Part shown: piece after piece, positions 16,302 through 54,980 of the stretch
Layout: every line of letters begins with the position of its first letter
Numbering within the stretch: the stretch's first letter is position 1
Origin: Vulcanimicrobiales bacterium
Lineage (GTDB): Bacteria > Vulcanimicrobiota > Vulcanimicrobiia > Vulcanimicrobiales > Vulcanimicrobiaceae
Assembly: GCA_038215615.1 (NCBI GenBank)
Contig: JBBQQR010000009.1
Location: 12,682-76,681 of the forward strand
Reading direction: 5' to 3'
Length of the DNA: 64,000 nt
Translations under genes and position numbers: made by a program
Notes under the pieces: generated by a model
Databases searched by the model: none
Told to the model about the DNA's origin: nothing
Seen by the model: only the letters and a program-made list of their open reading frames with translations

Positions 16302-16374
16302 GGGCGATTAGCTCAGCTGGTAGAGCGCTTGCTTTACACGCAAGATGTCGGCGGTTCGAGCCCGTCATCGCCCA
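16302..16374 (+). tRNA. tRNA-Val (anticodon TAC)
   Basis: Acceptor stem GGGCGAT/ATCGCCC, D arm GCTC/GAGC, anticodon arm CTTGC-TTTACAC-GCAAG, T loop GTTCGAG. Followed by CA rather than CCA. Confidence 0.95.
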
Positions 16375-19375: not shown

Positions 19376-20482
19376 GTGCGGCTGTTACTGAGCGGGTACT
19401 ATGGGTTTGGAAACCTCGGCGATGAAGCGCTTCTGGCTGTGATCGTCTCGCAACTTCGCACGCGACATCCCTATGCCGAAATCGACGTGCTCAGCGCCAA
19501 GCCCGAGGTGACGGCGCACGAATTGCGGGTGGACGCGACGCCGCGCTGGGATTCCAAGGCGGTGCGCCAAGCGATCGAACGCGCCGACGTAGTGCTTTCG
19601 GGCGGCGGCGGATTGCTGCAAAATGCGACCAGCTTGCGCAGCCTCATCTATTACAGCGGCATTATTCGGGCTGCGGTGCGCGCGCGGCGAACGACGATGA
19701 TCTTCGCGCAGTCGATCGGTCCGCTCGATTTTTGGGGAAGAACCGTCGTGCGTGAAACGTGTAAGGGTATCGCGGGCGCAACCGTTCGTGACGATCGGTC
19801 GCGCGAGTTGCTCGGCTCGCTGCTGCCCGGCATCCGGGTGGAACGAACCGCGGACCCGGCATTTCTGTTCGAAACGCCCGAGGATCAAGATGACTTTTCC
19901 GCCGACGGTTTGGGACCGCAAAGCGATCCGCTCGCGATTATCAGCGTGCGCAAGGCCAATGGTTTGAAAGATCGCATCGACGTGCTGGCGCGGGCGGTCG
20001 ACCGGCTGAGCGAAGAGCATGGGTTGCGAGTTGCGTTTCTTCCGCTGGGCGGCGCGTCCGATGCGGAAGTTTCCACGACGATCATTCGCAAGTGCCGCAC
20101 GCCGGCCGTGCTGTTGCCCGAAGCGCCGCTCGCTCGCGCTGCAAACATTATCGGGCGCGCCAAAGTTTTGGTCGGTATGCGGCTGCATTCGCTCATTCTG
20201 GCTGCGCGTCAGGGCGTGCCGTTTCTGGCGATTCCCTACGATCCGAAGGTCACGGCTTTTTGCGCAGATCTGGCTTATCCGCTGCCGCCGCTTTTTTCGC
20301 TCGAGACACCGGAAGAAAAGCCGGCTCCCGAGGCGGTCGATTCGGCGATCGACGCTCTGTGGAACCGGCGCGAGTCGCTGCGCGAGTACTTGCTGGCCGC
20401 GCGCGAGCCGCTGGAGCGATTGGCGCTGCGCAACTTTGAAGTGCTCGACGAGCTGATCGCGCAAGGGCCGCCGCGTGAGTGA
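19376..20482 (+). CDS. csaB: Polysaccharide pyruvyl transferase
   Basis: SGYYGFGNLGDEA, SGGGGLLQ..TS.RSL.YY, GMRLHS, YDPKV. Confidence 0.9.
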   Translation: MRLLLSGYYGFGNLGDEALLAVIVSQLRTRHPYAEIDVLSAKPEVTAHELRVDATPRWDSKAVRQAIERADVVLSGGGGLLQNATSLRSLIYYSGIIRAAVRARRTTMIFAQSIGPLDFWGRTVVRETCKGIAGATVRDDRSRELLGSLLPGIRVERTADPAFLFETPEDQDDFSADGLGPQSDPLAIISVRKANGLKDRIDVLARAVDRLSEEHGLRVAFLPLGGASDAEVSTTIIRKCRTPAVLLPEAPLARAANIIGRAKVLVGMRLHSLILAARQGVPFLAIPYDPKVTAFCADLAYPLPPLFSLETPEEKPAPEAVDSAIDALWNRRESLREYLLAAREPLERLALRNFEVLDELIAQGPPRE

Positions 20483-23276
20483 TCCGGCGGAACGCGATTA
20501 TCGCGACACGCTGAACCTGCCGAAGACGGACTTTCCGATGAAAGCGGACTTGCCGAAGCGGGAGCCCGACCGCGTCGCGTGGTGGGAAGAGCGGCGCACC
20601 TACGAAAAACGCCTCGAGCGCAATGCGCGCAACGCGCCGTGGATATTGCACGACGGTCCACCTTATGCCAACGGCGAGCTGCACATGGGCCATTTCCTGA
20701 ACATGGTCCTGAAAGACATCTTCGTAAAAATAGCGCTAATCGATTCGCGCTGGGCGAAGTTCGTGCCGGGCTGGGACATGCATGGCTTACCGATCGAGCT
20801 CGATACGCTCAAGCATCTAAAAATAAAAGATTTTCACGACGTCGATCCGGTCGAGTTCCGGGAGAAGTGCAAAGAGCGCGCGCTGCATTGGCTGGACCGC
20901 CAACGCTCGGTGCGCATGCGCATGGGGAACTTCGGCGACTGGCAGCATCCGTATCGCACGATCGATCCCGAATTTGAAGCGACGATCGTGGAAACGCTCG
21001 GCGCGCTCGCATCCAAGAATCAGCTCTACAAAGGCCTGCGCTCGACGCTGTGGTGCATTCACGACGAAACGGCGCTCGCCGAAGCGGAGATCGAATACAA
21101 GCCGCGCGTCTCGCCGTCGGTCACGGTACGTTTTACCGCGAACGACGCCCAACGAATGGCACTCTTAAGTGCCATGGCGAGCCTGTCGAACCACCCCGAG
21201 CAGCGCGGCGTAGCCGCGCAAGCCGAGGGGCTTTCAAAGCTAAGCCTCCTCATCTGGACCACGACACCGTGGACGCTGCCCGCAAATGCCGCGATCGCGC
21301 TGCGTCCGGATGCCGAGTATGGTTTGTACGTGGTGGGCGATGAAGCGGTGATTGTTGCCGATGCGCTCGCCGAAAAAACGTTAGGCGACCGCGTCGTGGA
21401 CGCGCGGCGAATCGGGGGCGCGAAGGGAAGCGCGTTGGAAGGATTGGCGGTCCGCCATCCGTTCATGGATCGCGACACGCCGATCGTGCTCGCCGATTAC
21501 GTCGACATGGAAACCGGAACCGGCGCGGTACACACGGCGCCGGGGCACGGTGCGGACGACTTCGAAACGGGCGTGAAATACAATTTGCCGATTATCAATC
21601 CGGTCAATTCTGGCGGCGTTTTCACGAGCGAAGCGGGACCGTACGCCGGCATGCACATTTGGAAAGCCAATCCGAAGATCGTCGAGGATCTGCGCGCGAG
21701 CGGCGCGCTTTGGGATTATGCGGACTTCGAACACAGCTATCCGCACTGCTGGCGCTGCCACAACCCGGTGATCTTCCGCGCAACCGCGCAGTGGTTCATC
21801 GCGATGGATCAAAACCGGCTGCGCGCGCGCACGATCGAAAACATCCGCAGCGTGCAGTGGACGCCCGCGTGGGGCCAAGAACGCATCGCGCAAATGCTCG
21901 AGACGCATCCCGAGTGGTGCATCTCGCGTCAGCGCACGTGGGGAACGCCGATTCCGGCAATTGTTTGCAAGGGATGCGGCGAATCGATCCTCGATCCCGA
22001 AGTCGCCCGCATTACTGCCGAAATCTTTCGGGAACGCGGCGCCAATGCGTGGTGGACCGATCCGGTGCAGAGTTTTCTGCCGCCAAATTTTGCCTGCCCC
22101 AAGTGCCGAAGCACGACGTTCGAAAAAGAAAAGAACATCGTCGACATCTGGTTTGAATCGGGCGTGACGCACTTGGCCGTGCTCGGCAAAAACGGCTTGC
22201 CTTGGCCGTCCGATCTGGTGCTGGAAGGCGGCGATCAGTATCGCGGCTGGTTCCGCAGCTCGATCGTGACGGCGACCGCGGTTAAAGGCGTGGCGCCTTA
22301 TAAACACGTGGTGAAGAACGGCTGGGTCAACGACGAGAGCGGCCGGCAGATGAGCAAATCGCTCGGCACCGGCATCGACGCGCAGGAAGCGATGCAAAAA
22401 TGGGGCGCGGACGTGCTGCGTTTGTGGGCGGCTTCGGTGGAGTTCGTCGACGACGTGCGCTTCGGGCCGCACGTCATCGAACAAGTCAGCCGCGTTTACC
22501 GCAACATTCGCAATCGCCTTCGCTTCATGGTGAGCAATCTTGGCGACGTGAATCCGGACGATCTCATCGCGCGCGAGAACATGGAGCCATTCGACGCGCT
22601 GGCGTGCGAGCAAGTCGATCGCTGGACCGTGACCGTCCTGGAGTCGCTGCGCGACTACGACTTACACGGCGCTTATTTAGAGATCGTGCGTTTCGAAGGA
22701 GATGACCTCTCAAGCTTCTATTTCGATGCGCTGAAGGACCGGCTCTATTCGAGCGCAGCCGGGGCGTCGCGCCGGCGCAGCGCGCAGAGCGCGCTCTTCT
22801 ATATATTGCAGCGCGTGCTGGCAGTGCTGGCGCCACTCCTTTCCTTTACGGCGGAAGAAGCGTGGCAAGCGGTGCCGGCGGAGTTGCGCCGCAGCGACAG
22901 CGTCTTCGACCTGACTTTCGAATCGGGGCGCCCGGCCGGAGAAAAGGCTGCCGCCCTCTGGCAGCTGCTGAAAGAATTGCGCCAGCAAGTCGCCGCTAAC
23001 GAGTCGCCGCGCGACTTTGAGGCCGACGCGAGCAGCGTTGTCGTTCCGGCGGCGATGCTGAACGACGTGACGGCGTTGGGCGACGGACTCCGCGAAGCTC
23101 TTGTGGTTTCCACTGTCGAGCGCGTGTCGGGTGACGGCGAGGAACGTCGCGTCTATTTACTGCCCGCTAAGGGCTCCAAATGCAAACGCTGCTGGAAATA
23201 CCTACCGCTTGGAAGCGATGCACAACATCCGTCGCTGTGCGCGCCGTGCGCAGAAACGGTTCATGCACTCGCTTAG
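20475..23276 (+). CDS. ileS: Isoleucine--tRNA ligase (carries an in-frame repeat insertion)
   Basis: HDGPPYANG, HMGH, WTTTPWTLP, GTGAVHTAPGHG, WCISRQR, QMSKS, C-terminal zinc finger. Confidence 0.97.
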   Translation: MSDPAERDYRDTLNLPKTDFPMKADLPKREPDRVAWWEERRTYEKRLERNARNAPWILHDGPPYANGELHMGHFLNMVLKDIFVKIALIDSRWAKFVPGWDMHGLPIELDTLKHLKIKDFHDVDPVEFREKCKERALHWLDRQRSVRMRMGNFGDWQHPYRTIDPEFEATIVETLGALASKNQLYKGLRSTLWCIHDETALAEAEIEYKPRVSPSVTVRFTANDAQRMALLSAMASLSNHPEQRGVAAQAEGLSKLSLLIWTTTPWTLPANAAIALRPDAEYGLYVVGDEAVIVADALAEKTLGDRVVDARRIGGAKGSALEGLAVRHPFMDRDTPIVLADYVDMETGTGAVHTAPGHGADDFETGVKYNLPIINPVNSGGVFTSEAGPYAGMHIWKANPKIVEDLRASGALWDYADFEHSYPHCWRCHNPVIFRATAQWFIAMDQNRLRARTIENIRSVQWTPAWGQERIAQMLETHPEWCISRQRTWGTPIPAIVCKGCGESILDPEVARITAEIFRERGANAWWTDPVQSFLPPNFACPKCRSTTFEKEKNIVDIWFESGVTHLAVLGKNGLPWPSDLVLEGGDQYRGWFRSSIVTATAVKGVAPYKHVVKNGWVNDESGRQMSKSLGTGIDAQEAMQKWGADVLRLWAASVEFVDDVRFGPHVIEQVSRVYRNIRNRLRFMVSNLGDVNPDDLIARENMEPFDALACEQVDRWTVTVLESLRDYDLHGAYLEIVRFEGDDLSSFYFDALKDRLYSSAAGASRRRSAQSALFYILQRVLAVLAPLLSFTAEEAWQAVPAELRRSDSVFDLTFESGRPAGEKAAALWQLLKELRQQVAANESPRDFEADASSVVVPAAMLNDVTALGDGLREALVVSTVERVSGDGEERRVYLLPAKGSKCKRCWKYLPLGSDAQHPSLCAPCAETVHALA
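21170..21231 (+). repeat. Composite GA-mismatch hairpin repeat, in frame in ileS
   Basis: TGCCA-TGGC-GAG-CCTGT-CGA-ACCA-CCCC-GAG-CAGCGCGGCGTAGCCGCGCAAGC-CGA-GGGG; encodes AMASLSNHPEQRGVAAQAEG. Confidence 0.85.
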
Positions 23277-23290
23277 CGTAGGGCGTTCAT

Positions 23291-23354
23291 GTTGTCATCG
23301 TGAGCCTGTCGAACGACCCTGAGTAGCGCATCTGCGATGCGCGGATCGAAGGGC
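23291..23354 (+). repeat. Composite repeat, left of the GIY-YIG gene
   Basis: GTTGTCA-TCGT-GAG-CCTGT-CGA-ACGA-CCCT-GAG-TAGCGCATCTGCGATGCGCGGAT-CGA-AGGG-C. Confidence 0.9.
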
Positions 23355-23396
23355 TCGGGGCCTTGTTAAATGTTTCCTCGGTCGCAGTAGAGACGC

Positions 23397-23686
23397 ATGC
23401 GACGTTATTACGTGTACATGTTACAGTGCGCCGACGGCAGCTTCTATATCGGGATAACGAACAATTTGGATTTGCGCGTTTGGCAGCACAACGAAGGTAT
23501 CGATACGCACTGCTATACGTACTTGAGGCGCCCCGCGACACTCGTCTATTCCACCGATTTCGATGACCCGAAAAGGGCCATCTCGTGGGAAAAAAGCTCA
23601 AAGGCTGGTCACGTAAAAAGAAACAAGCTCTCATCGATGATAACTGGAGCCGAATAAGCGAGCTCGCGCGTAGAAAAATCGTGTGA
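23397..23686 (+). pseudogene. Stand-alone GIY-YIG nuclease (UPF0213/YhbQ-like), frameshifted at an A6 run (real or assembly error)
   Basis: YYVYMLQCADGSFYIGITNNL..RV.QHNEG. Adding one A at 23590-23595 restores WEKKLKGWSRKKKQALI...KIV* ending at 23686. Confidence 0.85.
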
Positions 23687-23690
23687 ACGC

Positions 23691-23754
23691 GCCCCCTCGA
23701 CCTGGGCGCTTTCGCGCCCTGCTCGGGGTCCTTCGACAGGCTCAGGATGACAAC
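23691..23754 (-). repeat. Composite repeat, right of the GIY-YIG gene (inverted)
   Basis: Reverse complement: GTTGTCA-TCCT-GAG-CCTGT-CGA-AGGA-CCCC-GAG-CAGGGCGCGAAAGCGCCCAGGT-CGA-GGGG-GC. Confidence 0.9.
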
Positions 23755-23766
23755 TGATAGGCGACG

Positions 23767-24204
23767 CTATTTCAGCGTCTGGACAAACTCCGCAACGTCG
23801 TGAAGATCGCGCGGCGTCATCTTCCAGCGCGGCATGACGGGATCGAGCACCTTGCCCTGGTTATCGACGCCGGTGGAAATGGCGCGCTCCAAACTTTGGA
23901 GCGTATAGGCCGGTTTGACGGACGCGAGCGCCTTTTGCCGCAAGTCGGCGCTCACGGCTCCTCCCGGCAGGTGCACGCCGCCCGAACCATCGGCGCGATG
24001 GCAGGCCGCGCACGACGTGCGCAGCGGCGGATGCAGTGCATTGATGCGAAAACCTTGGCTGTCCTTGCCGGTGAGGAAGATCATACGCCCATCGGACATA
24101 GCGCTCATCCTGGCTGCGGTCGCGGCGCGCTGCGCTTGCATCGAGTTGTTCGCGCACGCGCAAAGCGTGGTTAACGCAACGAGCGGAATGATATATTTTC
24201 GCAC
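23767..24204 (-). CDS. Monoheme c-type cytochrome lipoprotein
   Basis: Lipobox-like LCAC, CAACH, distal MP; SD GGAGG. Confidence 0.85.
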   Translation of the reverse strand: MRKYIIPLVALTTLCACANNSMQAQRAATAARMSAMSDGRMIFLTGKDSQGFRINALHPPLRTSCAACHRADGSGGVHLPGGAVSADLRQKALASVKPAYTLQSLERAISTGVDNQGKVLDPVMPRWKMTPRDLHDVAEFVQTLK

Positions 24205-24239: not shown

Positions 24240-27051
<2,812 letters not shown>

Positions 27052-38287: not shown

Positions 38288-39486
38288 GCTTCGAGCGCCT
38301 TTATGCCGGGGAGTTCTTTACCCTCGAGAAATTCGAGCGTCGCGCCGCCCCCGGTGCTTACGTGCGTGACGTTCTCCGCAAAGCCGAGCTCCTCGGCCGC
38401 AGCCGCGGCGTCGCCGCCGCCGACGACCGTGCGCGCGCCGCGCCCCGTTGCGCGCGCCATCGCTTCACCGACCGCTCGCGTACCTTCGCGGTAGGGCGGT
38501 TTCTCGTAGACGCCCATCGGTCCGTTGAAAACCACGGTGCGCGCCGCTTCGATGGTCTTCGCATACGCGGCGGCAGTCTTCGGTCCGATGTCGAGGATCA
38601 TGGAATTGCCGACGTCTGACAGTTCGACTGTGTGCGCGCCGGCATCATCGTCGAACTTTGCCGAAACGACCGCGTCGACCGGAAGCATCATCTCGACGCC
38701 GCGCTTGGCAGCGAGCTCGAGCATTGCTTGGGCCGGCTGCAAATCGTCGTCGCGCAGCGACGTGCCGACATCGATCCCTTGTGCCGCCAAAAATGTGTTT
38801 GCCATTCCTCCGCCGATGCAGAAGGCCGTCACACGATCCATCAGGTTATTGAAGACGCCGACCTTGTCTTTGACCTTCGCTCCACCGATCACGCACACGT
38901 AGGGCCGGTGAGGATCGGTCAGGAGGTTCGAAAGCTCGGCGATCTCGGCTTCCATGAGCAAACCGGCGAAGGCCGGCAAGCAATGCGCGACGCCTTCGGT
39001 TGAAGCGTGCGCGCGGTGCGCCGTTCCGAAAGCGTCGTTGACGTAGAGATCGGCCAGCGCCGCCAGCTGCTTTGCAAAATGCGGATCGTTCCGTTCTTCA
39101 CCCGGTTCGAAGCGGACATTTTCGAGCATCACGATCTGTCCATCGCGCAGTGATTCAGAAGCTTCTTGCGCGGCGGGACCCACCACGTCGGGCACCAGGG
39201 GCACATCACGGTGCAAGCGTTCGGCTAGGGCAGCGGCAACCGGTTTCAACGTGTATTTCGGGTTGCGTTTGCCCTCCGGCCGCCCCAAATGCGAAACGAT
39301 GATCGTGCGCGCGCCGCGATCGGAAAGATAGCGTAACGTCGGGAGCGCGGAATCGATCCGTTTGTAGTCGAGAATAGCCTGCCCTGAGCCTGCCGAAGGG
39401 TCTTTGAGCGGCACGTTGAGGTCTTCGCGGAGCAGCACGCGCTTGCCGCGCACGTCCGCGTCTTTCAGTGTGCGAAGCGTGGGCAC
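38284..39486 (-). CDS. pgk: Phosphoglycerate kinase (short in-frame repeat insertion)
   Basis: [39 protein letters not shown]. Confidence 0.97.
39380..39400 (+). repeat. Single-unit repeat inside pgk
   Basis: TG-CCCT-GAG-CCTGC-CGA-AGGG; antisense reading gives PSAGSGQ. Confidence 0.8.
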
Positions 39487-40516: not shown

Positions 40517-41401
40517 TCATCTCGAAGCGGATTCCCCGCGCAGGCGGCGCGCCAAGCGCGCCAGCGCGTTCAGACGGCTGCCGGCGGCCGGCTTGGATAT
40601 GGGTGGACTGCAGCGCTTGCCCAGCTCCGCCAAACTTTCGTCGGGATGGTTGAGGCGCAGCTCCGCAATCTCGCGCAACGCCGCGCTCAAGTGGCGCAGG
40701 CCGTACGCAGAGCTGACGTAATCGATGATCTCGCGCTGTGCGGCGGCTGCGCCGGCGACTCGCTCGAGATTTGCCGCTTCTGTGTTCACCAAGCGATGAA
40801 TGCGATTCTTGGTTTCCTTGAGCGCGTGGATGCCTTCAAGTTCCAATACGGTGTTGTGCGCGCCGGTGATGCCGAAGAACTGGACGATCGCCTCGAAGTC
40901 TTTATAGTAGAGCGTCGTGCGTTCGCTGCGGCGCATATTTTTCGGCGCACCGGCGACGGCGCGCAGGATCCATTCGAGTCGCTCGGCTCGCTCGCGATCC
41001 GGCGGCACGAACTCCAAGTGATAACCTTGCGATCCGGCGGATACCGAACCGCACGTCAAAAACGCGGCGCGAGCTTCCATCACACGATCGCATTTCCGAA
41101 CCGGTTTGCGTGCGCGTTCGGGCTCGACCGGTATCGCAATTCGCTGCGCCGTGCGGTTTGTTTTCGTTGTCATCCTGAGGTTGTCGAAGGACCCCGAGGG
41201 GCGAGCGAAGCGAGCCTCACGAGGGGAAAGCCTTAAAAGAAGCCGTGCAACCGCGTTGCGATGTGTCACAAAGTATGTACGCTTGCCGATCGATCGAGTA
41301 CCGTAGAGTACGAGGCCGGCGAGCAGTGCTTCGCGGCAGTGCGCCTGCTCCGGCAGATCGCGTGCCAGCGCGTCTTTGGTGTCGGCGGAAAGATTACGCA
41401 T
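40517..41401 (-). CDS. whiA: DNA-binding protein WhiA (in-frame repeat insertion)
   Basis: AFL.CGSVS..YHLEF, RLVN.EAANL, LR...P..SL.ELG; upstream of gap. Confidence 0.9.
41166..41226 (+). repeat. Composite repeat inside whiA (antisense to the gene)
   Basis: GTTGTCA-TCCT-GAG-GTTGT-CGA-AGGA-CCCC-GAG-GGGCGAGCGAAGCGAGCCTCA-CGA-GGGG; encodes [20 protein letters not shown]. Confidence 0.9.
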
Positions 41402-43884: not shown

Positions 43885-45059
43885 GCTCGTGCGGTCTTTG
43901 CCATTTTCCACAATTCCTCGAGTTCGTCCAGCGTCATGTCGGCGAGTGACTTGCCGTCTTTGGCGGCGCGCGCTTCCATGAAACAAAAGCGTTTGTAAAA
44001 CTTCTCGTTCGCCTCGCGCATCGCCGCTTCCGCGTCGATTCCGAGCGCGCGCGATAGGTTAACCAGCGTGAAGAACACGTCGCCGAGCTCTTCGCGCACG
44101 TGCGGATCGTCCTGCTTGGCGCGCCGGGCTTCGGCCAGTTCGCGCAGCTCCTCGACGAGCTTCTCGAGAATCTGAGAGGCCGCCGGCCAGTCGAAACCCA
44201 CGCGGGCCGCTTTCTCTTGCATGCGCTGGCCGCGCTGCATCGCTCCGAGATGCCGCGGAATGCCGTCCAGGCGGCTGCGCCGTTTGCGCCCGGTGGCCTC
44301 TTCGGCTTTGAGACGTTCCCAGTTTTTCCACTGCGCGTCGACGTCTTCGATCACGGCCTCGCCGAACACGTGCGGATGGCGCCTGATCATTTTGTTCGAG
44401 AGCGCGTCGATGACGTCGGCGCTCGTGAACCGTCCCGTTTCGCTTCCGATTTGCGCGTGAAAAACGATCTGCAGCAGCAGGTCGCCGAGTTCTTCGCTGA
44501 GTGCGGTTTCGTCATTCAGCTCGATCGCTTCGACCACTTCGTACGTTTCTTCGATGAGATACGGCACGAGCGTGCGGTGGGTCTGTTCGCGATCCCACGG
44601 GCACGACCGGCGCAAACGCGCCATGATTTCGATTAAGTCGTTCCACGTGTGGTGCGTGGAAGCGGGCGGTAGCGGCACGAGCGGCATGGCGATCGCCGCC
44701 GAGAGCGTATCGCGCGGGACGCCCGGCACGATCTCCGTCCGAATCCCGCGGCTTTCGAGCGCGCGCACGAATTGCGGCAACCCGGGAAAGTCCGAAAGCG
44801 GATTCCCGAGGACGCCTATTGCGATATCGCTGCCCTGCAGCGACGCCGCGACGCTCTCGATAGCTTCAGTTGCGCCGCGGACGAAGAGTGCGGGATCGGC
44901 GGCGAGACCGGTGACGATCTCGACGCCTTGTGATTCGATGTAGGCGATCAGTTCCGACGGCGCGAGCATCAGTGCGGCGCGCCGCGACGCGCGCAGGGCA
45001 TCGAGACTTCCCAGCGTGAGCAGTCCCGGATCGCCCGGCCCGAGCCCGACGATGCGCAC
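43881..45059 (-). CDS. mazG: YabN-type tetrapyrrole-methylase-like/MazG nucleoside triphosphate pyrophosphohydrolase
   Basis: IVGLGPG N-terminus, [31 protein letters not shown], second EELGD. Confidence 0.92.
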
Positions 45060-45089
45060 CCTTCGACTCGCTGCGCTTCGCTCAGGGCG
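45059..45089 (-). repeat. Single-unit repeat abutting the mazG start
   Basis: Reverse complement: CG-CCCT-GAG-CGAAGCGCAGCGAGT-CGA-AGGG; the last G is the G of the GTG start. Confidence 0.8.
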
Positions 45090-45113
45090 GGCTATGCTCG
45101 GTGCCTTCTTGGG

Positions 45114-50095: not shown

Positions 50096-51419
50096 AAACA
50101 CCAGCCGCAATTGCAAATGGAACGAGCGCGATCGCAACGCTCAGAGACGTGGAAAGATCGGTCATGGCATCGGGAAGATAGCGCAAGACCGAAGCCAGCG
50201 TTAACGCCACGATCGCCCACGCGGCGGGAGTTTCCCACGCAAAAAGCGCCGCCGGTAAGATCCACAGCGCGTACCATGGGTACGGGTTGGGAATCGCAAT
50301 CCATAGCGCGAGCGCCAGCAGCGCGGCGCCGCTGTGGTTGCGCTTCCATAAGAGAATGCATCCGCCGATCGCTAACGCCACGGCAAGTGCGGCGGTAAGC
50401 GCGAGCGCCGCGGATCCGCCAAACGCCGCGTCTAGGACGTACTGCAGGGAGAATTGCGGGAAATAGGTTCCGCGTCCGGCGTTGTGCGAGAGCTGTGCCA
50501 GCGCGGGCCACGCGACGACTGCCGCCGCGGCGAGTCCCAATAGCGTGCCGGTTAAGACGCGCGAGCGCAAGCGACTCTCTGCGAACATGAACGGAGCGAC
50601 TGCGGCGGCTAGCAAGCCCGGCGCTTTTACGAGCGCCGATAACGAAACGACGACGGCACCCGTAAAGTGGCGCCCGCGTGTGATCAAGGCGGATCCCGCT
50701 AAAACGATTGCAACAAGGTAGACATCGTTGTGTCCTTCGGCCGCGGCCCAGATCGCGATCGGATTGAGCGCGATGCCCGCGGCGGCTGCGACGCGCGTGC
50801 GTTCGGGAAATGCCGCATGCGCCAGAGGAGCGCAGAGAACGAGCGCTCCGCAAGCACTGATGCGCAAGGCCCACAGCGGGGCGGCGGGGCCGAAGCCGGC
50901 AAAGATCGCGACGGTCGCTTGCGTGAACCATACGAATGCCGGGCCGTAAACGCAAGCCGGCGGAGGATTTCCCCACTGCCACAGCACCGCATCCATCAGC
51001 GGACCGCGCAAAGGAACGGCCGCATGCGCGTAGGGATCCAACCCGTGCAGCGCCATCAATCCGTACCCGGCGTAGGCGTAAACGTCGCTTGAAAATACGA
51101 CCGGAAAAAACAACGCAGCTGTACACGCGAGCGCGCTGCAAATGAGTGTCATGGCGAGCGTAGTCGAACCACCCCGAGCAGCGCCCGGTACGGGCGCAAG
51201 CCGAGGGGATGCCAGGACCGCCACATACCCGACGCTTGCGATCGCGATCGCAACAAACAGCGCAAGCCACATCAGCGACCCGAAATTCCCCCAGTACGTC
51301 ACCACGGCGAGCAGCTGCGCGCGGTCGACGGCAAACGTGGCGGGCACCCGCAGAAGAAGCAGCCGGCACGCGATGGCGCCGGCCACGAATCCTAATGGAA
51401 CGAAAAAGGCTAATCGCAT
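50010..51419 (-). CDS. GT-C membrane glycosyltransferase (MptA/MptB-like)
   Basis: FSSDVYAY...G..PY, YGP, LNP....GHND, PYPWY..W. Confidence 0.8.
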   Translation of the reverse strand: MRLAFFVPLGFVAGAIACRLLLLRVPATFAVDRAQLLAVVTYWGNFGSLMWLALFVAIAIASVGYVAVLASPRLAPVPGAARGGSTTLAMTLICSALACTAALFFPVVFSSDVYAYAGYGLMALHGLDPYAHAAVPLRGPLMDAVLWQWGNPPPACVYGPAFVWFTQATVAIFAGFGPAAPLWALRISACGALVLCAPLAHAAFPERTRVAAAAGIALNPIAIWAAAEGHNDVYLVAIVLAGSALITRGRHFTGAVVVSLSALVKAPGLLAAAVAPFMFAESRLRSRVLTGTLLGLAAAAVVAWPALAQLSHNAGRGTYFPQFSLQYVLDAAFGGSAALALTAALAVALAIGGCILLWKRNHSGAALLALALWIAIPNPYPWYALWILPAALFAWETPAAWAIVALTLASVLRYLPDAMTDLSTSLSVAIALVPFAIAAGVFIACSRRLRSGLPENHTPVPDPALYHFP

Positions 51420-52729: not shown

Positions 52730-54019
52730 ATGGATGAAACGGCGATGCGCCATTGCATCGAACGCAAGCGTGACGGCCACGCACTGTCGGCGACTGACTG
52801 GGACGCGATCATCGACGGTTTTATGGAAGGCCGCATAGACGAAGCACAGACCGCCGCGCTGTTCATGGCGTGCGTGTGGCGCGGTATGACTTTCGAGGAA
52901 GCCCACGCGCTGACCGATGCGATGGTGCGCAGCGGGGAAACGATTTCGTTCGACCGCGCCAGAGGCATCGTCGTCGATAAGCACTCGAGCGGAGGAGTCG
53001 CCGACATCGTCTCGTTGGTTGCGGTCCCGCTGGCGGCGGCGTGCGGCGCGCGCGTTGCAAAACTTTCGGGCCGGGCGCTTGGCCACACCGGTGGCACGAT
53101 CGACAAGCTCGAAGCAATTCCCGGTTTCAATGCTGCACTTTCGCTCGACACGTTCGTTCGCCAGGTCGAAACAATCGGTTGCGCGATTGCGGCGCAAACC
53201 CAAGCGCTGGTCCCGGCCGATAAACGGATCTACAACTTGCGCGATCGGACCGGTACGGTTCCCGCGATGGGGTTGATCGCTGCGTCGATCGTTTCGAAGA
53301 AAATCGCCTGTGGCGCGCATGCGATTGTGTTCGACGTAAAAACAGGTCCCGCGTCGTTTACGCCTCAACCGGATCAAGCTCGCGAGCTCGCGCGTTGGCT
53401 CGTTGAGATCTGCAAGGGATTCGGTCGCAAAGCCGTCGCCGTTGTCAGCGACATGCATCAGCCGCTGGGCCGCACCGTCGGCACGGGCATCGAAATGGTC
53501 GAAGCTCGCGACCTACTGCGGAATGGCGATAGTGTCATCCTGAGCTTGTCGAAGGACCCCGAGCGAAGCCGAGGGGTGAAGCTGATTTTAAAGATCGTCG
53601 CTGCGCTCCTGGACGCTTCGGAAATTTCCGGCGGCGAGAAACTCGCTGCGAAAGCCTTGGCCGGTGGAACGGGCTACGCGAAGCTCGTAGAAATGGTGGA
53701 AGCTCAAGGCGCGTCGCGCGGCGCCCTCGAGGGTATGGAGCTCGACTCGAAACCGCTTACCGCGAAGGCCTCGCAGTCGGGTTTTGTGCAATCGATCGAC
53801 GTGGTCCATTTAGGAAATGCCGGACGGCGGCTTTCCCACAGCGACTCCCTCGGCGGTTTGTTCGTAAACGTGGCAATCGGCGAACGCGTTGAAGCCGGTC
53901 AGCCGCTTGCGCGCGTCTATGGCAAAGACAAGGACCACGTTCGTAACTTGGAAGGCTCGTTCAAGATCGGCGCGGAGCCGGTTGAACCCCCCCCGCTGAT
54001 CTACGGCACCGTTACGTAG
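52730..54019 (+). CDS. pdp: Pyrimidine-nucleoside/thymidine phosphorylase (in-frame repeat insertion)
   Basis: KRDG, DKHSSGGV.D, SGRALGHTGGTIDKLE, PADK, SIVSKK, DVKTG. Confidence 0.93.
   Translation: MDETAMRHCIERKRDGHALSATDWDAIIDGFMEGRIDEAQTAALFMACVWRGMTFEEAHALTDAMVRSGETISFDRARGIVVDKHSSGGVADIVSLVAVPLAAACGARVAKLSGRALGHTGGTIDKLEAIPGFNAALSLDTFVRQVETIGCAIAAQTQALVPADKRIYNLRDRTGTVPAMGLIAASIVSKKIACGAHAIVFDVKTGPASFTPQPDQARELARWLVEICKGFGRKAVAVVSDMHQPLGRTVGTGIEMVEARDLLRNGDSVILSLSKDPERSRGVKLILKIVAALLDASEISGGEKLAAKALAGGTGYAKLVEMVEAQGASRGALEGMELDSKPLTAKASQSGFVQSIDVVHLGNAGRRLSHSDSLGGLFVNVAIGERVEAGQPLARVYGKDKDHVRNLEGSFKIGAEPVEPPPLIYGTVT
53533..53576 (+). repeat. Composite repeat in frame in pdp
   Basis: TGTCA-TCCT-GAG-CTTGT-CGA-AGGA-CCCC-GAG-CGAAGC-CGA-GGGG; encodes VILSLSKDPERSRG. 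Confidence 0.9.
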
Positions 54020-54020
54020 C

Positions 54021-54980
54021 TTACGAACGTTCGATATCTGAAATTAAGTAAAGCGGGCGCCCCTTCACTTCATCGTTGATTCGTCCGATGTACTCGCCGA
54101 GTATGCCGATGCCGATCAGTTGTACGCCGCCAAGAAAAAGAATCGCGACCATCGTCGAGGCCCAGCCGCGCGTATATTCCGGAATTCCCAAGCGAAATAA
54201 CCGGAAAAAGATAATAATGATCGCGTACAAAAAAGCGACCGTGCTAACCGTGAAGCCCAGGTATGAAGCGAAACGGAGCGGCACGTCTGAAAACGACGTG
54301 ATGCCGTCGATTGCGAATTTTAACATCTTGGACAGCGGATACTTGCTCGTACCGAACTGGCGCTCGTCGCGGTCGTACTCAACCGCGGTTTGCGCGAAGC
54401 CGGCCCAACTAACCATGCCGCGTAGAAACCGGTGGCGTTCGCGCGACCGCTTCAAAACTTCAATGACCCGGCGGCTCATCAGCCTGAAATCACCGGCGTT
54501 CATCGGTATCGATACACTTGTGAGGCGCCGGATGATCCGGTAGAACGCGCCCGCAGTTGCAAGCTTGAACCGGCTTTCACCCTTACGCGACCGACGCACC
54601 GCGTAGATGACGTCGTATCCTGCGCGCCAGCGCTCGACGAATTCCGGGATCAGCTCGGGCGGATCTTGCAGGTCGCCGTCCATCAACACGACCGCCTCGC
54701 CGCGCGAAACGTCCAGCCCCGCGGTGGCGGCGAGCTGGTGGCCAAAATTACGCGAGAGGTTCACAAAGACAACGTGTGGGTGGCGCTGCAACTCCTCGCG
54801 TATGCGGTCGGCCGTTGCGTCCGCGCTGCCGTCGTTCACCAGAACGAGCTCGTAGGTCGGATGGTCGGGCAGGCTTTCTAGAATGCCCCTCACGCGCTCG
54901 ACGAGCGGCGCAACATTTGCCTCTTCATTGAAAAGCGGCACGACGACGCTCAAAACAACGGGCGCCGCGTTGCTAGCCAT
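54021..54980 (-). CDS. GtrB/ArnC-like polyprenyl-phosphate glycosyltransferase
   Basis: VVPLFNEE, LSRNFGHQ, DGDLQDPP, GDFRL, two C-terminal TMs, GEYIGRI...RP.Y. Confidence 0.92.
   Translation of the reverse strand: MASNAAPVVLSVVVPLFNEEANVAPLVERVRGILESLPDHPTYELVLVNDGSADATADRIREELQRHPHVVFVNLSRNFGHQLAATAGLDVSRGEAVVLMDGDLQDPPELIPEFVERWRAGYDVIYAVRRSRKGESRFKLATAGAFYRIIRRLTSVSIPMNAGDFRLMSRRVIEVLKRSRERHRFLRGMVSWAGFAQTAVEYDRDERQFGTSKYPLSKMLKFAIDGITSFSDVPLRFASYLGFTVSTVAFLYAIIIIFFRLFRLGIPEYTRGWASTMVAILFLGGVQLIGIGILGEYIGRINDEVKGRPLYLISDIERS

Follow-up and report, generated by a model that had tools for sequence, protein, structure and literature searches.

Nucleases of the Ssn group are small proteins (94 amino acids; CDD cd10448) that consist of a single GIY-YIG domain and are partnered with dispersed hairpin repeats. 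As reported by Chenal et al. in 2025 (Nat Commun; PMC11893778), these enzymes bind an oriented hairpin repeat, termed NTS in Neisseria and SRM generally, only as single-stranded DNA (ssDNA), and they cut a few nucleotides upstream of the hairpin. SRMs are located on both sides of 42% of Ssn homolog genes, and a homolog is present in 81% of the genomes that carry more than 200 SRMs (PMC11893778). In the experiments described in that report, SsnA did not bind RNA or cut double-stranded DNA, and the role tested in N. meningitidis was the restriction of incoming ssDNA, not transposition. Its authors liken the NTS-ssnA-NTS arrangement to IS200/IS605 insertion sequences (IS) and to repetitive extragenic palindrome (REP)/bacterial interspersed mosaic element (BIME) systems, and they suggest domestication (PMC11893778). 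Here we describe a comparable arrangement in a 64,000-nucleotide stretch of DNA from a Vulcanimicrobiales bacterium (GenBank assembly GCA_038215615.1, contig JBBQQR010000009.1; hereafter "the window"), wherein a small GIY-YIG nuclease gene located between ileS and a cytochrome c gene is bracketed by two inverted copies of a dispersed hairpin repeat.

We consider it likely that this system is a member of the Ssn kind, in which a GIY-YIG nuclease of about 96 amino acids is paired with a cognate dispersed hairpin, and that it belongs to a divergent branch. The likeness to Ssn proteins extends to a single GIY-YIG domain of about 94 to 96 amino acids with the same catalytic Tyr/Tyr/Glu positions (PMC11893778). 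It also extends to an oriented hairpin of its own on both sides of the gene, as seen in the window, at 25 of 36 loci from the same bacterial family, and at 46 of 74 loci sampled across phyla. Furthermore, both kinds of repeat have a 5′ (C/T)GTCA tag, and tens to hundreds of copies are scattered through genomes of several phyla. A first-pass annotation of the window had proposed a new mobile system laid out like a REP and its REP-associated tyrosine transposase (RAYT), with a GIY-YIG nuclease as the partner. The layout is as described, and a GIY-YIG gene is the only plausible one between the inverted repeats. The claim of novelty must be withdrawn, since nucleases with flanking dispersed hairpins, along with the REP parallel, are already in print (PMC11893778). 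A literature search for GIY-YIG proteins paired with REP palindromes, miniature transposable elements with inverted repeats (MITEs), RAYTs, or REPINs found nothing, and the Ssn paper phrases the matter differently.

The association between the nuclease gene and the repeat is far beyond chance. We read the flanks of 36 same-family homolog loci manually from match tables, counting as a flanking copy any match to a covariance model of the repeat (R1) with an E value of 0.01 or lower. A plus-strand copy on the left together with a minus-strand copy on the right is present at 25 of these loci, far above the expectation from repeat density, and thus the suggestion that the clade is consistently flanked by inverted copies holds. 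At least one side is occupied at 35 of the 36, often by arrays of up to six copies, and the sole locus without any flanking copy (L057) is one whose sequence ends soon after the gene. The genome from which the window derives also provides a natural negative control in its UPF0213/YhbQ-type GIY-YIG gene, which has no repeat copies nearby. This gene (C4:51560-51769, locus L002) lies between genes for a peptidase-like protein and a cyclophilin-type isomerase. Likewise, two class-level loci that have only UPF0213-like genes show no adjacent copies. One of the 36 loci (L071) comes from an unpublished genome (G254), and the tallies given here also include the unpublished genomes G017, G036, G192, G241, G243, G247, G256, G272, and G284; our conclusions do not depend on any of them.

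Repeat abundance was also expected to track the presence of the nuclease, and this is clear among 40 relatives and weaker in a larger set. When a subfamily homolog is defined by an E value of 1e-15 or lower, all 17 relatives with a homolog have R1 matches (1 to 138), whereas 21 of the 23 relatives without one have no match. The two exceptions, which have repeats and no homolog, are G020, which is 72% complete and has 40 matches, and G021, which is 96% complete and has 16. The larger comparison used a 14-nucleotide core pattern, TGAGCNNGTCGAAG, on 207 genomes of the same family. Ten or more core matches occur in 81 of 104 genomes that have the subfamily, and six or fewer occur in 20 of the 104. 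Ten or more are also found in 43 of 100 genomes that lack it. The first-pass annotation had regarded repeat-rich genomes without the nuclease as contrary evidence, and such evidence is found in part, although gaps at repeats in metagenome-assembled genomes may explain some of them. Indeed, because many homologs are located at contig ends, some of the gene absences may be assembly gaps, but not all. On lax re-searching of five repeat-rich, gene-less genomes, four proved to have a UPF0213-type gene only and one had none. Among these genomes is an assembly of 3 contigs that holds 41 matches and only an unrelated GIY-YIG gene of the UPF0213 type.

The same pairing recurs in distant hosts. When one genome per species was searched, the protein had at least 590 relatives, and the best 79 loci (45% to 86% identity) were analyzed. 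The hosts of these 79 include Eremiobacterota/Vulcanimicrobiota, many Bacteroidota, Nitrospirota, Nitrospinota, Ignavibacteria, Gemmatimonas, a Peribacteria metagenome-assembled genome, and two Proteobacteria. Seventy-four loci had at least 150 nucleotides on each side and were scanned with a strict regular expression over a 300-nucleotide range. The plus-strand motif is upstream at 55 and the minus-strand motif is downstream at 54, with both present at 46, at least one at 63, and none at 9. Farther from the gene, these loci have a core-motif background of 0.03 per 300 nucleotides per strand. The core hairpin that emerges is composed of TGTCA, a covarying stem of 3 bp, and the loop TGAGCYYGTCGAA. 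In a set of 148 distinct hairpins, pairing reaches 94% to 97% at the three stem positions, with four pair types, compared to 41% to 53% at the next four positions outward, and the unpaired TGTCA and the loop are conserved. Matches in whole genomes versus a reversed control number 22/1, 8/0, 33/0, 12/0, and 109/0 in five Bacteroidota (the last being Mucilaginibacter) and 250/0 in Paracidovorax. In G312 (Mucilaginibacter) and G313 (Paracidovorax), the matches form mostly inverted doublets spaced about 42 and about 26 nucleotides center to center, respectively. These doublets are REPIN-like, whereas the window genome instead has single two-hairpin units.

The covariance model R1 was built from 20 full copies in the window genome, which aligned without difficulty, and it describes a unit of two tandem hairpins spanning 63 nucleotides. 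In this alignment, 97.8% of the cells are paired, compared to 33% to 48% when partners are slid. Nine of the 16 base pairs are changed on both sides, and none of 500 shuffles equals the covariation score. The first hairpin has the tag TTGTCA, a 3-bp stem, and the loop TGAGCYTGTCGAA. The second hairpin, CCCY-GAGC-(variable GC stem-loop)-GTCGA-RGGG, lacks the tag. Both are built alike, with GAGC and GTCGA located between the stem halves. The 2.21-Mb genome holds 45 to 58 R1 matches, and the core motif occurs 20 times versus 2 in the reversed control. In relatives, the first hairpin may hold an extra stem between TGAGC and GTCGAA.

Several searches around the repeat gave negative results or side observations. 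Neither in the window nor in 16 related loci does an Rfam family match the repeat at gathering score, the hits in the latter all being below threshold, and around the gene only Rubella_3 noise (E > 1) appears; the window's sole Rfam match at gathering score is a tRNA gene (16302-16374). The 5-nucleotide flanks of the 20 copies reveal no conserved target, only a weak YCRGA tendency upstream, and the hairpins of these repeats are not followed by a T-run. Partial-unit tandem arrays (TGTCATGGTGAGCTTGTCCTATT and similar) adjoin full copies at three places (L030 1340-1410; C4:39037-39093 in the window genome; L029 1830-1900), and these look like the outcome of repeated copying of the hairpin's 5′ portion. 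As described by Weinberg (2010), the Pedo-repair and Flavo-1 RNA motifs differ from the repeat, and neither matches the gene-flanking copies. One sub-threshold Flavo-1 match (33 versus 42 bits; L103 3298-3360, minus strand), about 1 kb from a nuclease gene, is unrelated to the repeat.

The nuclease itself is best judged from its intact orthologs, which have 93 to 107 amino acids and a single domain, with GIY-YIG as the only Pfam match. No NCBIfam model matches an intact ortholog. Residues Tyr7, Tyr17, Arg27, His31, and Glu65 are invariant across 13 intact homologs. Mutations Y6A, Y17A, and E64A are reported to inactivate SsnA (PMC11893778). For comparison, we took small GIY-YIG genes from NTS-rich Burkholderiales genomes. 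One encodes a 94-amino-acid protein with Tyr6, Tyr17, and Glu64, in agreement with the mutant numbering of Chenal et al. (PMC11893778), and has canonical NTS copies on its flanks, so we infer that it is an SsnA ortholog. An ortholog of the window protein is 37% identical to it (pairwise E value 2e-14). In a tree of 43 sequences with no rows left out, a long branch leads to a single clade of NTS-type sequences (100/99 support). This clade groups with the window-type sequences, which form an unresolved set beside or around it, and UPF0213 proteins lie apart from both types (83/79). Because the tree is small and midpoint-rooted, it gives no indication of evolutionary direction.

The nearest solved structures by sequence are the UPF0213 proteins BH0048 and EF2693 (PDB 1ZG2 and 1YWL; E values 1e-20 and 1e-15). 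They resemble the window protein in size and in having a single GIY-YIG domain. However, UPF0213 proteins form a separate clade, and the UPF0213-type genes of this genome and its relatives are without flanking repeats, unlike the window nuclease. The genome has three GIY-YIG genes in all, namely the window gene, the UPF0213-type gene, and uvrC. Carriage by plasmids or phages was considered and set aside, given that matches were seen in 3 of 72,556 plasmid records and in 14 phage records, none of them above 45% identity.

Given these features, it seems reasonable to propose how such a nuclease might act. The cognate site would be the hairpin with its 5′ TGTCA tag, a 3-bp stem that is free in sequence yet always paired, and the conserved 13-nucleotide loop TGAGCYYGTCGAA, which may stack further as a T-A pair, tandem G.A/A.G pairs, and a G-C pair. 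In the genus of the window, the repeat unit consists of a tandem pair of hairpins of this kind, of which the second (CCCY-GAGC-[variable stem]-GTCGA-RGGG) is tagless. If the assayed Ssn homologs from Neisseria and Wolbachia are a guide, the folded hairpin is most likely bound by the protein on ssDNA only, and on the motif strand only. By the same analogy, the cut would be placed a few nucleotides 5′ of the tag, and the enzyme might act wherever ssDNA is exposed, such as during replication, recombination, or the entry of incoming DNA. The gene is bracketed by its own sites, present as inverted copies or arrays, in the manner of NTS-ssnA-NTS. Any part that the protein plays in spreading the repeats is likewise putative.

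Several observations weigh against this assignment to the Ssn kind or set the case apart from the published systems. Membership in the clade is taken from a small tree with an unresolved backbone, and the window-type proteins differ from the NTS-type proteins in carrying CYTxxRRP and KGWSRKKK in place of GFTxKY and KxWNRxWK. The hairpins also differ, with a 3-bp stem and a 13-nucleotide loop here compared to a 7- to 9-bp stem and a 3- to 5-nucleotide loop for the NTS type as published. The first hairpin does not stand out in nearest-neighbor folding as ssDNA (z scores of -0.7 to -3.1), and therefore the structural case rests on covariation. The published SRM pattern covers none of 40 repeat copies, and genome-wide it has 13 matches versus 18 to 35 in mononucleotide shuffles. 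Supplementary data 4 of PMC11893778 gives an SRM enrichment of only 0.5- to 2-fold for Bacteroidota carriers, and of about 0.5- to 1-fold for Elizabethkingia meningoseptica and Algoriphagus hitonicola. In the same source, subfamily carriers are mostly marked "NO" for a tblastn match to N. meningitidis SsnA and for a CDD score above 100, as these two species are on both counts, and "YES" for the cd10448 psiblast, in rows that stand for genomes, not genes. Many copies are in frame inside genes here, whereas 2% of NTS copies are reported to be intragenic (PMC11893778). Copies are mostly on the mRNA-sense strand, which leaves room for a role at the RNA level.

Comparison of related genomes reveals that the cassette, meaning the gene together with its flanking repeats, behaves as a discrete unit of insertion or deletion that is able to flip. 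A second nuclease lineage (about 51% to 54% identical) occupies, in G001 and G004, a site whose two flanks are only 4 nucleotides apart in the window genome (C1:104352/104357). The indel at this C1 site is the whole cassette including repeats (515 nucleotides in G001 and 612 in G004), with 30 to 50 nucleotides of extra non-repeat sequence and no duplication. A second empty site is located at C37:3427/3462 relative to the copy in G003. A solo repeat copy of 61 nucleotides is present in G006 and absent, with clean borders, at about 54005-54021 of the window; at the other solo sites compared, the differences exceed the repeat itself. Furthermore, G006 and G008 carry the gene segment of about 475 bp in opposite orientations, with collinear sequence on either side. 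The closest orthologs (78% to 83% identity, four species) share the ileS/cytochrome c/LigB neighborhood. In four relatives an inverted cytochrome c gene lies between ileS and the cassette, and in the window the cassette comes first. With respect to ileS and LigB, the cytochrome c gene of those relatives (loci L025-L028) has been turned around, with breakpoints at repeat copies, and thus the repeats seem to drive local rearrangement. Nuclease decay is also frequent, as evident from the frameshift in the window, the truncated genes of G005 and G009, and several homologs with in-frame stops. These changes to cassettes and genes do not show which enzyme moves what.

It is conceivable, though in our view doubtful, that the cassette is an autonomous mobile element whose nuclease nicks or excises hairpins and disperses gene-less copies, in analogy to REP/RAYT or IS/MITE systems. 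This hypothesis is raised by Chenal et al. themselves (PMC11893778). It would suit the presence or absence of whole cassettes with both flanks at the C1 and C37 sites, the clean solo copy in G006, the RAYT-like number of one to three gene copies per genome, and the REPIN-like inverted doublets of fixed spacing in Bacteroidota and a betaproteobacterium. However, GIY-YIG enzymes hydrolyze DNA, and we know of no strand-transfer or strand-rejoining chemistry among them, so that insertion would require host functions. Neither a target-site duplication nor a conserved target is seen. The absence of a visible duplication, already remarked upon in the first-pass annotation, now extends to one filled/empty pair of a solo site and to the cassette borders. 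Because the cassette indels include 30 to 50 nucleotides of non-repeat sequence, deletion is an equally good reading of them. The closest orthologs keep the same neighborhood in five species, and 43 of 100 gene-less genomes have at least 10 motif copies; a role of the nuclease as a master element that spreads the copies is only putative. The role tested in N. meningitidis, as noted above, is ssDNA restriction (PMC11893778).

An improbable alternative is that the nuclease is a homing-type selfish gene that is parasitic on the repeats, cutting hairpin sites and being copied into them by repair through the homology of its flanking repeats. Such a parasite would be bracketed by repeats as observed, and repeats without the gene do occur whereas the gene without repeats is rare (1 of 36 loci). 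The frequent decay of the gene would fit a cycle of invasion and degeneration, and the gene does flip between its repeats. However, the empty sites observed lack the repeats as well, and a homing target should retain them. The copy number stays at one to three despite tens to hundreds of potential targets, and Ssn enzymes are reported to leave double-stranded DNA uncut (PMC11893778).

The placement of repeat copies relative to genes bears on the last alternative. By a crude gene call, 16 of 40 copies are inside open reading frames (ORFs), 13 of them in the sense orientation, and by manual reading the copies downstream of genes are about 12 sense versus 6 antisense. Pfam searches confirm seven of eight ORFs tested as genuine single genes whose domains flank or surround the copy. 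The copy is located between the GTPase domain and domain 2 of RF3 (prfC), splits the adenylation domain of LigA (ligA), falls in the linker of a biotin carboxylase-BCCP protein, and is inside the genes for Lhr, PurL, and an amidohydrolase; a LigD-like protein has two copies. In-frame sense copies in the window genome (ileS and loci L176-L182) add about 20 residues, mostly between domains. At one ileS site compared in six species, three species have an intact copy and one has a shortened copy; in the other two it has decayed or is read in a different frame.

That the repeats are chiefly RNA-level elements (3′-end stabilizers, terminators, or small RNAs) with only a secondary link to the nuclease seems very unlikely, even though copies have a sense-strand bias and many lie 5 to 60 nucleotides past stop codons, including both that flank the nuclease gene, because the motifs at that gene are symmetric on DNA (top strand on the left, bottom strand on the right), such that one transcript would carry one sense and one antisense copy, and because the hairpins match no Rfam family and lack a T-run, and SsnA, as reported, did not bind RNA (PMC11893778). 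One further point on the side of RNA is the Rfam small RNA AaHKsRNA41 from Aggregatibacter, whose consensus contains an inverted pair of CUGAGCUUGcCGAAG hairpins and which for this reason gives a sub-threshold match (29.8 versus 97 bits) to a doublet in Pedobacter (L103 2346-2474). This suggests that the CUGAGCUUGcCGAAG motif also exists, and is transcribed, in Pasteurellaceae.

Other known repeat systems share some features with the proposed Ssn-type pair. REP/RAYT systems join an HUH/Y1 (TnpA IS200-like) transposase with a GTAG-tagged palindrome. REP and REPIN elements with RAYT (TnpA-REP) genes, the topic of PMC3116915 and PMC3333891, are similar in that a single-copy nuclease gene lies amid inverted dispersed hairpins, that doublets form in some genomes, and that repeats outlive the gene; they differ in that the protein here is a GIY-YIG nuclease rather than an HUH/Y1 transposase and the tag is TGTCA rather than GTAG. 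Di Nocera et al. (2013) describe CGTC-tagged REPs that have a terminal CGTC, which is "changed to TGTC" in many repeats, stems of 8 to 9 bp, loops of 4 to 5 nucleotides, and, as described, no associated transposase (PMC3733652). Tag, oriented hairpin, head-to-head dimers, and intragenic units are shared with the repeat described here; the 3-bp stem and 13-nucleotide loop are not, and a hairpin with a TGAGCYYGTCGAA loop is not among the text descriptions compared (PMC3733652). For IS or MITE elements with terminal inverted repeats, a target-site duplication would be expected, and none is seen at the one solo pair or the cassette borders. Rickettsia palindromic elements are short hairpin repeats that are in frame in protein genes and are tolerated as extra peptide. 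Insertion in frame is common to these and to the repeats here, although the sequence and the host are different.

The details of the window (Table 1) bear out much of the first-pass annotation with some corrections. The inverted pair of composite hairpins around the GIY-YIG gene is confirmed. An inverted-repeat search of the window reports it as 39-nucleotide arms, 87% complementary and 386 nucleotides apart, and the outer ends of both copies are (G)TTGTCA. The gene, which had been described as a stand-alone ORF of about 96 amino acids, is of the GIY-YIG family and encodes 96 amino acids in intact orthologs, whereas the window copy is frameshifted and reduced to an 86-amino-acid ORF. Because an antisense ORF of 115 amino acids (23287-23634) overlaps the interval from repeat to repeat, the nuclease gene is the only plausible ORF there and not literally the only one. 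Seven further copies had been listed. Four of these are strong (57.8 to 73.4 bits), two are marginal variants that resemble first-hairpin-only forms, and the one at 26695 is at noise level (8.3 bits, E value 2); a strong copy at 51146-51209 had been missed. With filters off, the window thus holds seven strong R1 copies, including the flanking pair, and two marginal ones. A long tgt ORF (467 amino acids, 25010-26413, minus strand) reads upstream through the copy at 26094-26154, which is likely in the 5′ leader and not in the protein because the true tgt start is probably further downstream. In the relative G007, the assembly breaks at the site that matches the copy at 41167.

Table 1. Positions of the nuclease gene, repeat copies, and neighboring genes in the window (R1, covariance model of the repeat)
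Feature	Position	Strand	Remarks
ileS	20475-23276	+	Upstream neighbor of left repeat
Left flanking repeat copy	23292-23354	+	R1 79.1 bits; starts 16 nt past ileS stop
Left copy, first hairpin	~23292-23317	+	TTGTCA tag, 3-bp stem, loop TGAGCCTGTCGAA
Left copy, second hairpin	~23318-23354	+	CCCTGAG..variable GC stem..ATCGAAGGG
GIY-YIG ORF, 86 amino acids	23397-23657	+	Pfam PF01541, E 4e-14; homologous to orthologs up to ~23594, then out of frame
A6 run, frame break	23590-23595	+	Intact orthologs read WEKKLKGWSRKKK across this point (tblastn)
Nuclease C-terminal part, shifted frame	23597-23686	+	LKGWSRKKKQALIDDNWSRISELARRKIV, then stop; second tblastn segment, frame +3
Right flanking repeat copy, inverted relative to left	23692-23753	-	R1 84.2 bits; 14 nt beyond cytochrome c stop
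Cytochrome c gene, convergent	23767-24204	-	Followed by LigB-type dioxygenase gene
Solo copy inside ileS, in frame, sense	21169-21231	+	R1 73.4 bits; encodes SLSNHPEQRGVAAQAEGLSK
Solo copy, upstream of tgt ORF or in its 5′ extension	26094-26154	-	R1 67.0 bits
Solo copy	41167-41227	+	R1 66.3 bits
Solo copy, not in earlier list	51146-51209	+	R1 66.7 bits
Solo copy, second hairpin shortened	53532-53577	+	R1 57.8 bits
Marginal first-hairpin-like variant, CCC TGAGCCTGCCGAA GGG, without TGTCA tag	39379-39451	+	R1 14.2 bits, E 0.065
Marginal variant, insert between TGAGC and GTCGAA half-sites	45058-45107	-	R1 12.1 bits, E 0.22

The frame of the window nuclease is broken at the A6 run, where three close orthologs continue uninterrupted as WEKKLKGWSRKKKQAL (tblastn). 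Contigs assembled separately from the probable source run have identical letters at the A6 run at a depth of about 5.8, and because they agree, the break is in the data and is not the product of one assembler. Comparison of these contigs with the window gave no joints, no inversion, and no A6 variant; since they are not independent of the assembly, they are silent on excision. Programmed frameshifting at the A6 run was considered and set aside. The zero-frame phase is GAA AAA AGC, which does not match the slippery pattern A-AAA-AAG, and orthologs carry one more A. Because the gene is frameshifted, the nuclease system in the window is probably inactive or decaying.

What is already known, then, is the pairing of an Ssn-type nuclease with a hairpin; what differs here is the branch of the nuclease and a hairpin that the published motif misses. 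The case provides a concrete second pair, in which a named clade is matched to a precisely delimited and structurally different cognate hairpin, and this difference explains the absence of SRM enrichment reported for Bacteroidota that have cd10448-like genes. We tentatively speculate that the TGTCA/3-bp stem/TGAGCYYGTCGAA hairpin and its GIY-YIG clade might constitute an undescribed second Ssn recognition class in Eremiobacterota, Bacteroidota, Nitrospirota, Nitrospinota, and some Proteobacteria, with a cassette that is perhaps still mobile, coming and going as a block, flipping, and seeding solo hairpins that include in-frame copies in essential genes such as ileS, ligA, prfC, and purL. Because bacteria that are easy to grow, such as Mucilaginibacter, Pedobacter, Flavobacterium, and Gillisia, carry the pair, its specificity, its cleavage site, and any role in the spread of the repeats are directly testable. 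Whether such systems are domesticated or still mobile is a question for which the filled and empty cassette sites, the flipping of the gene, and the copies in frame within essential genes are relevant, and the nuclease may spread the repeats, ride on them, or only cut at them.

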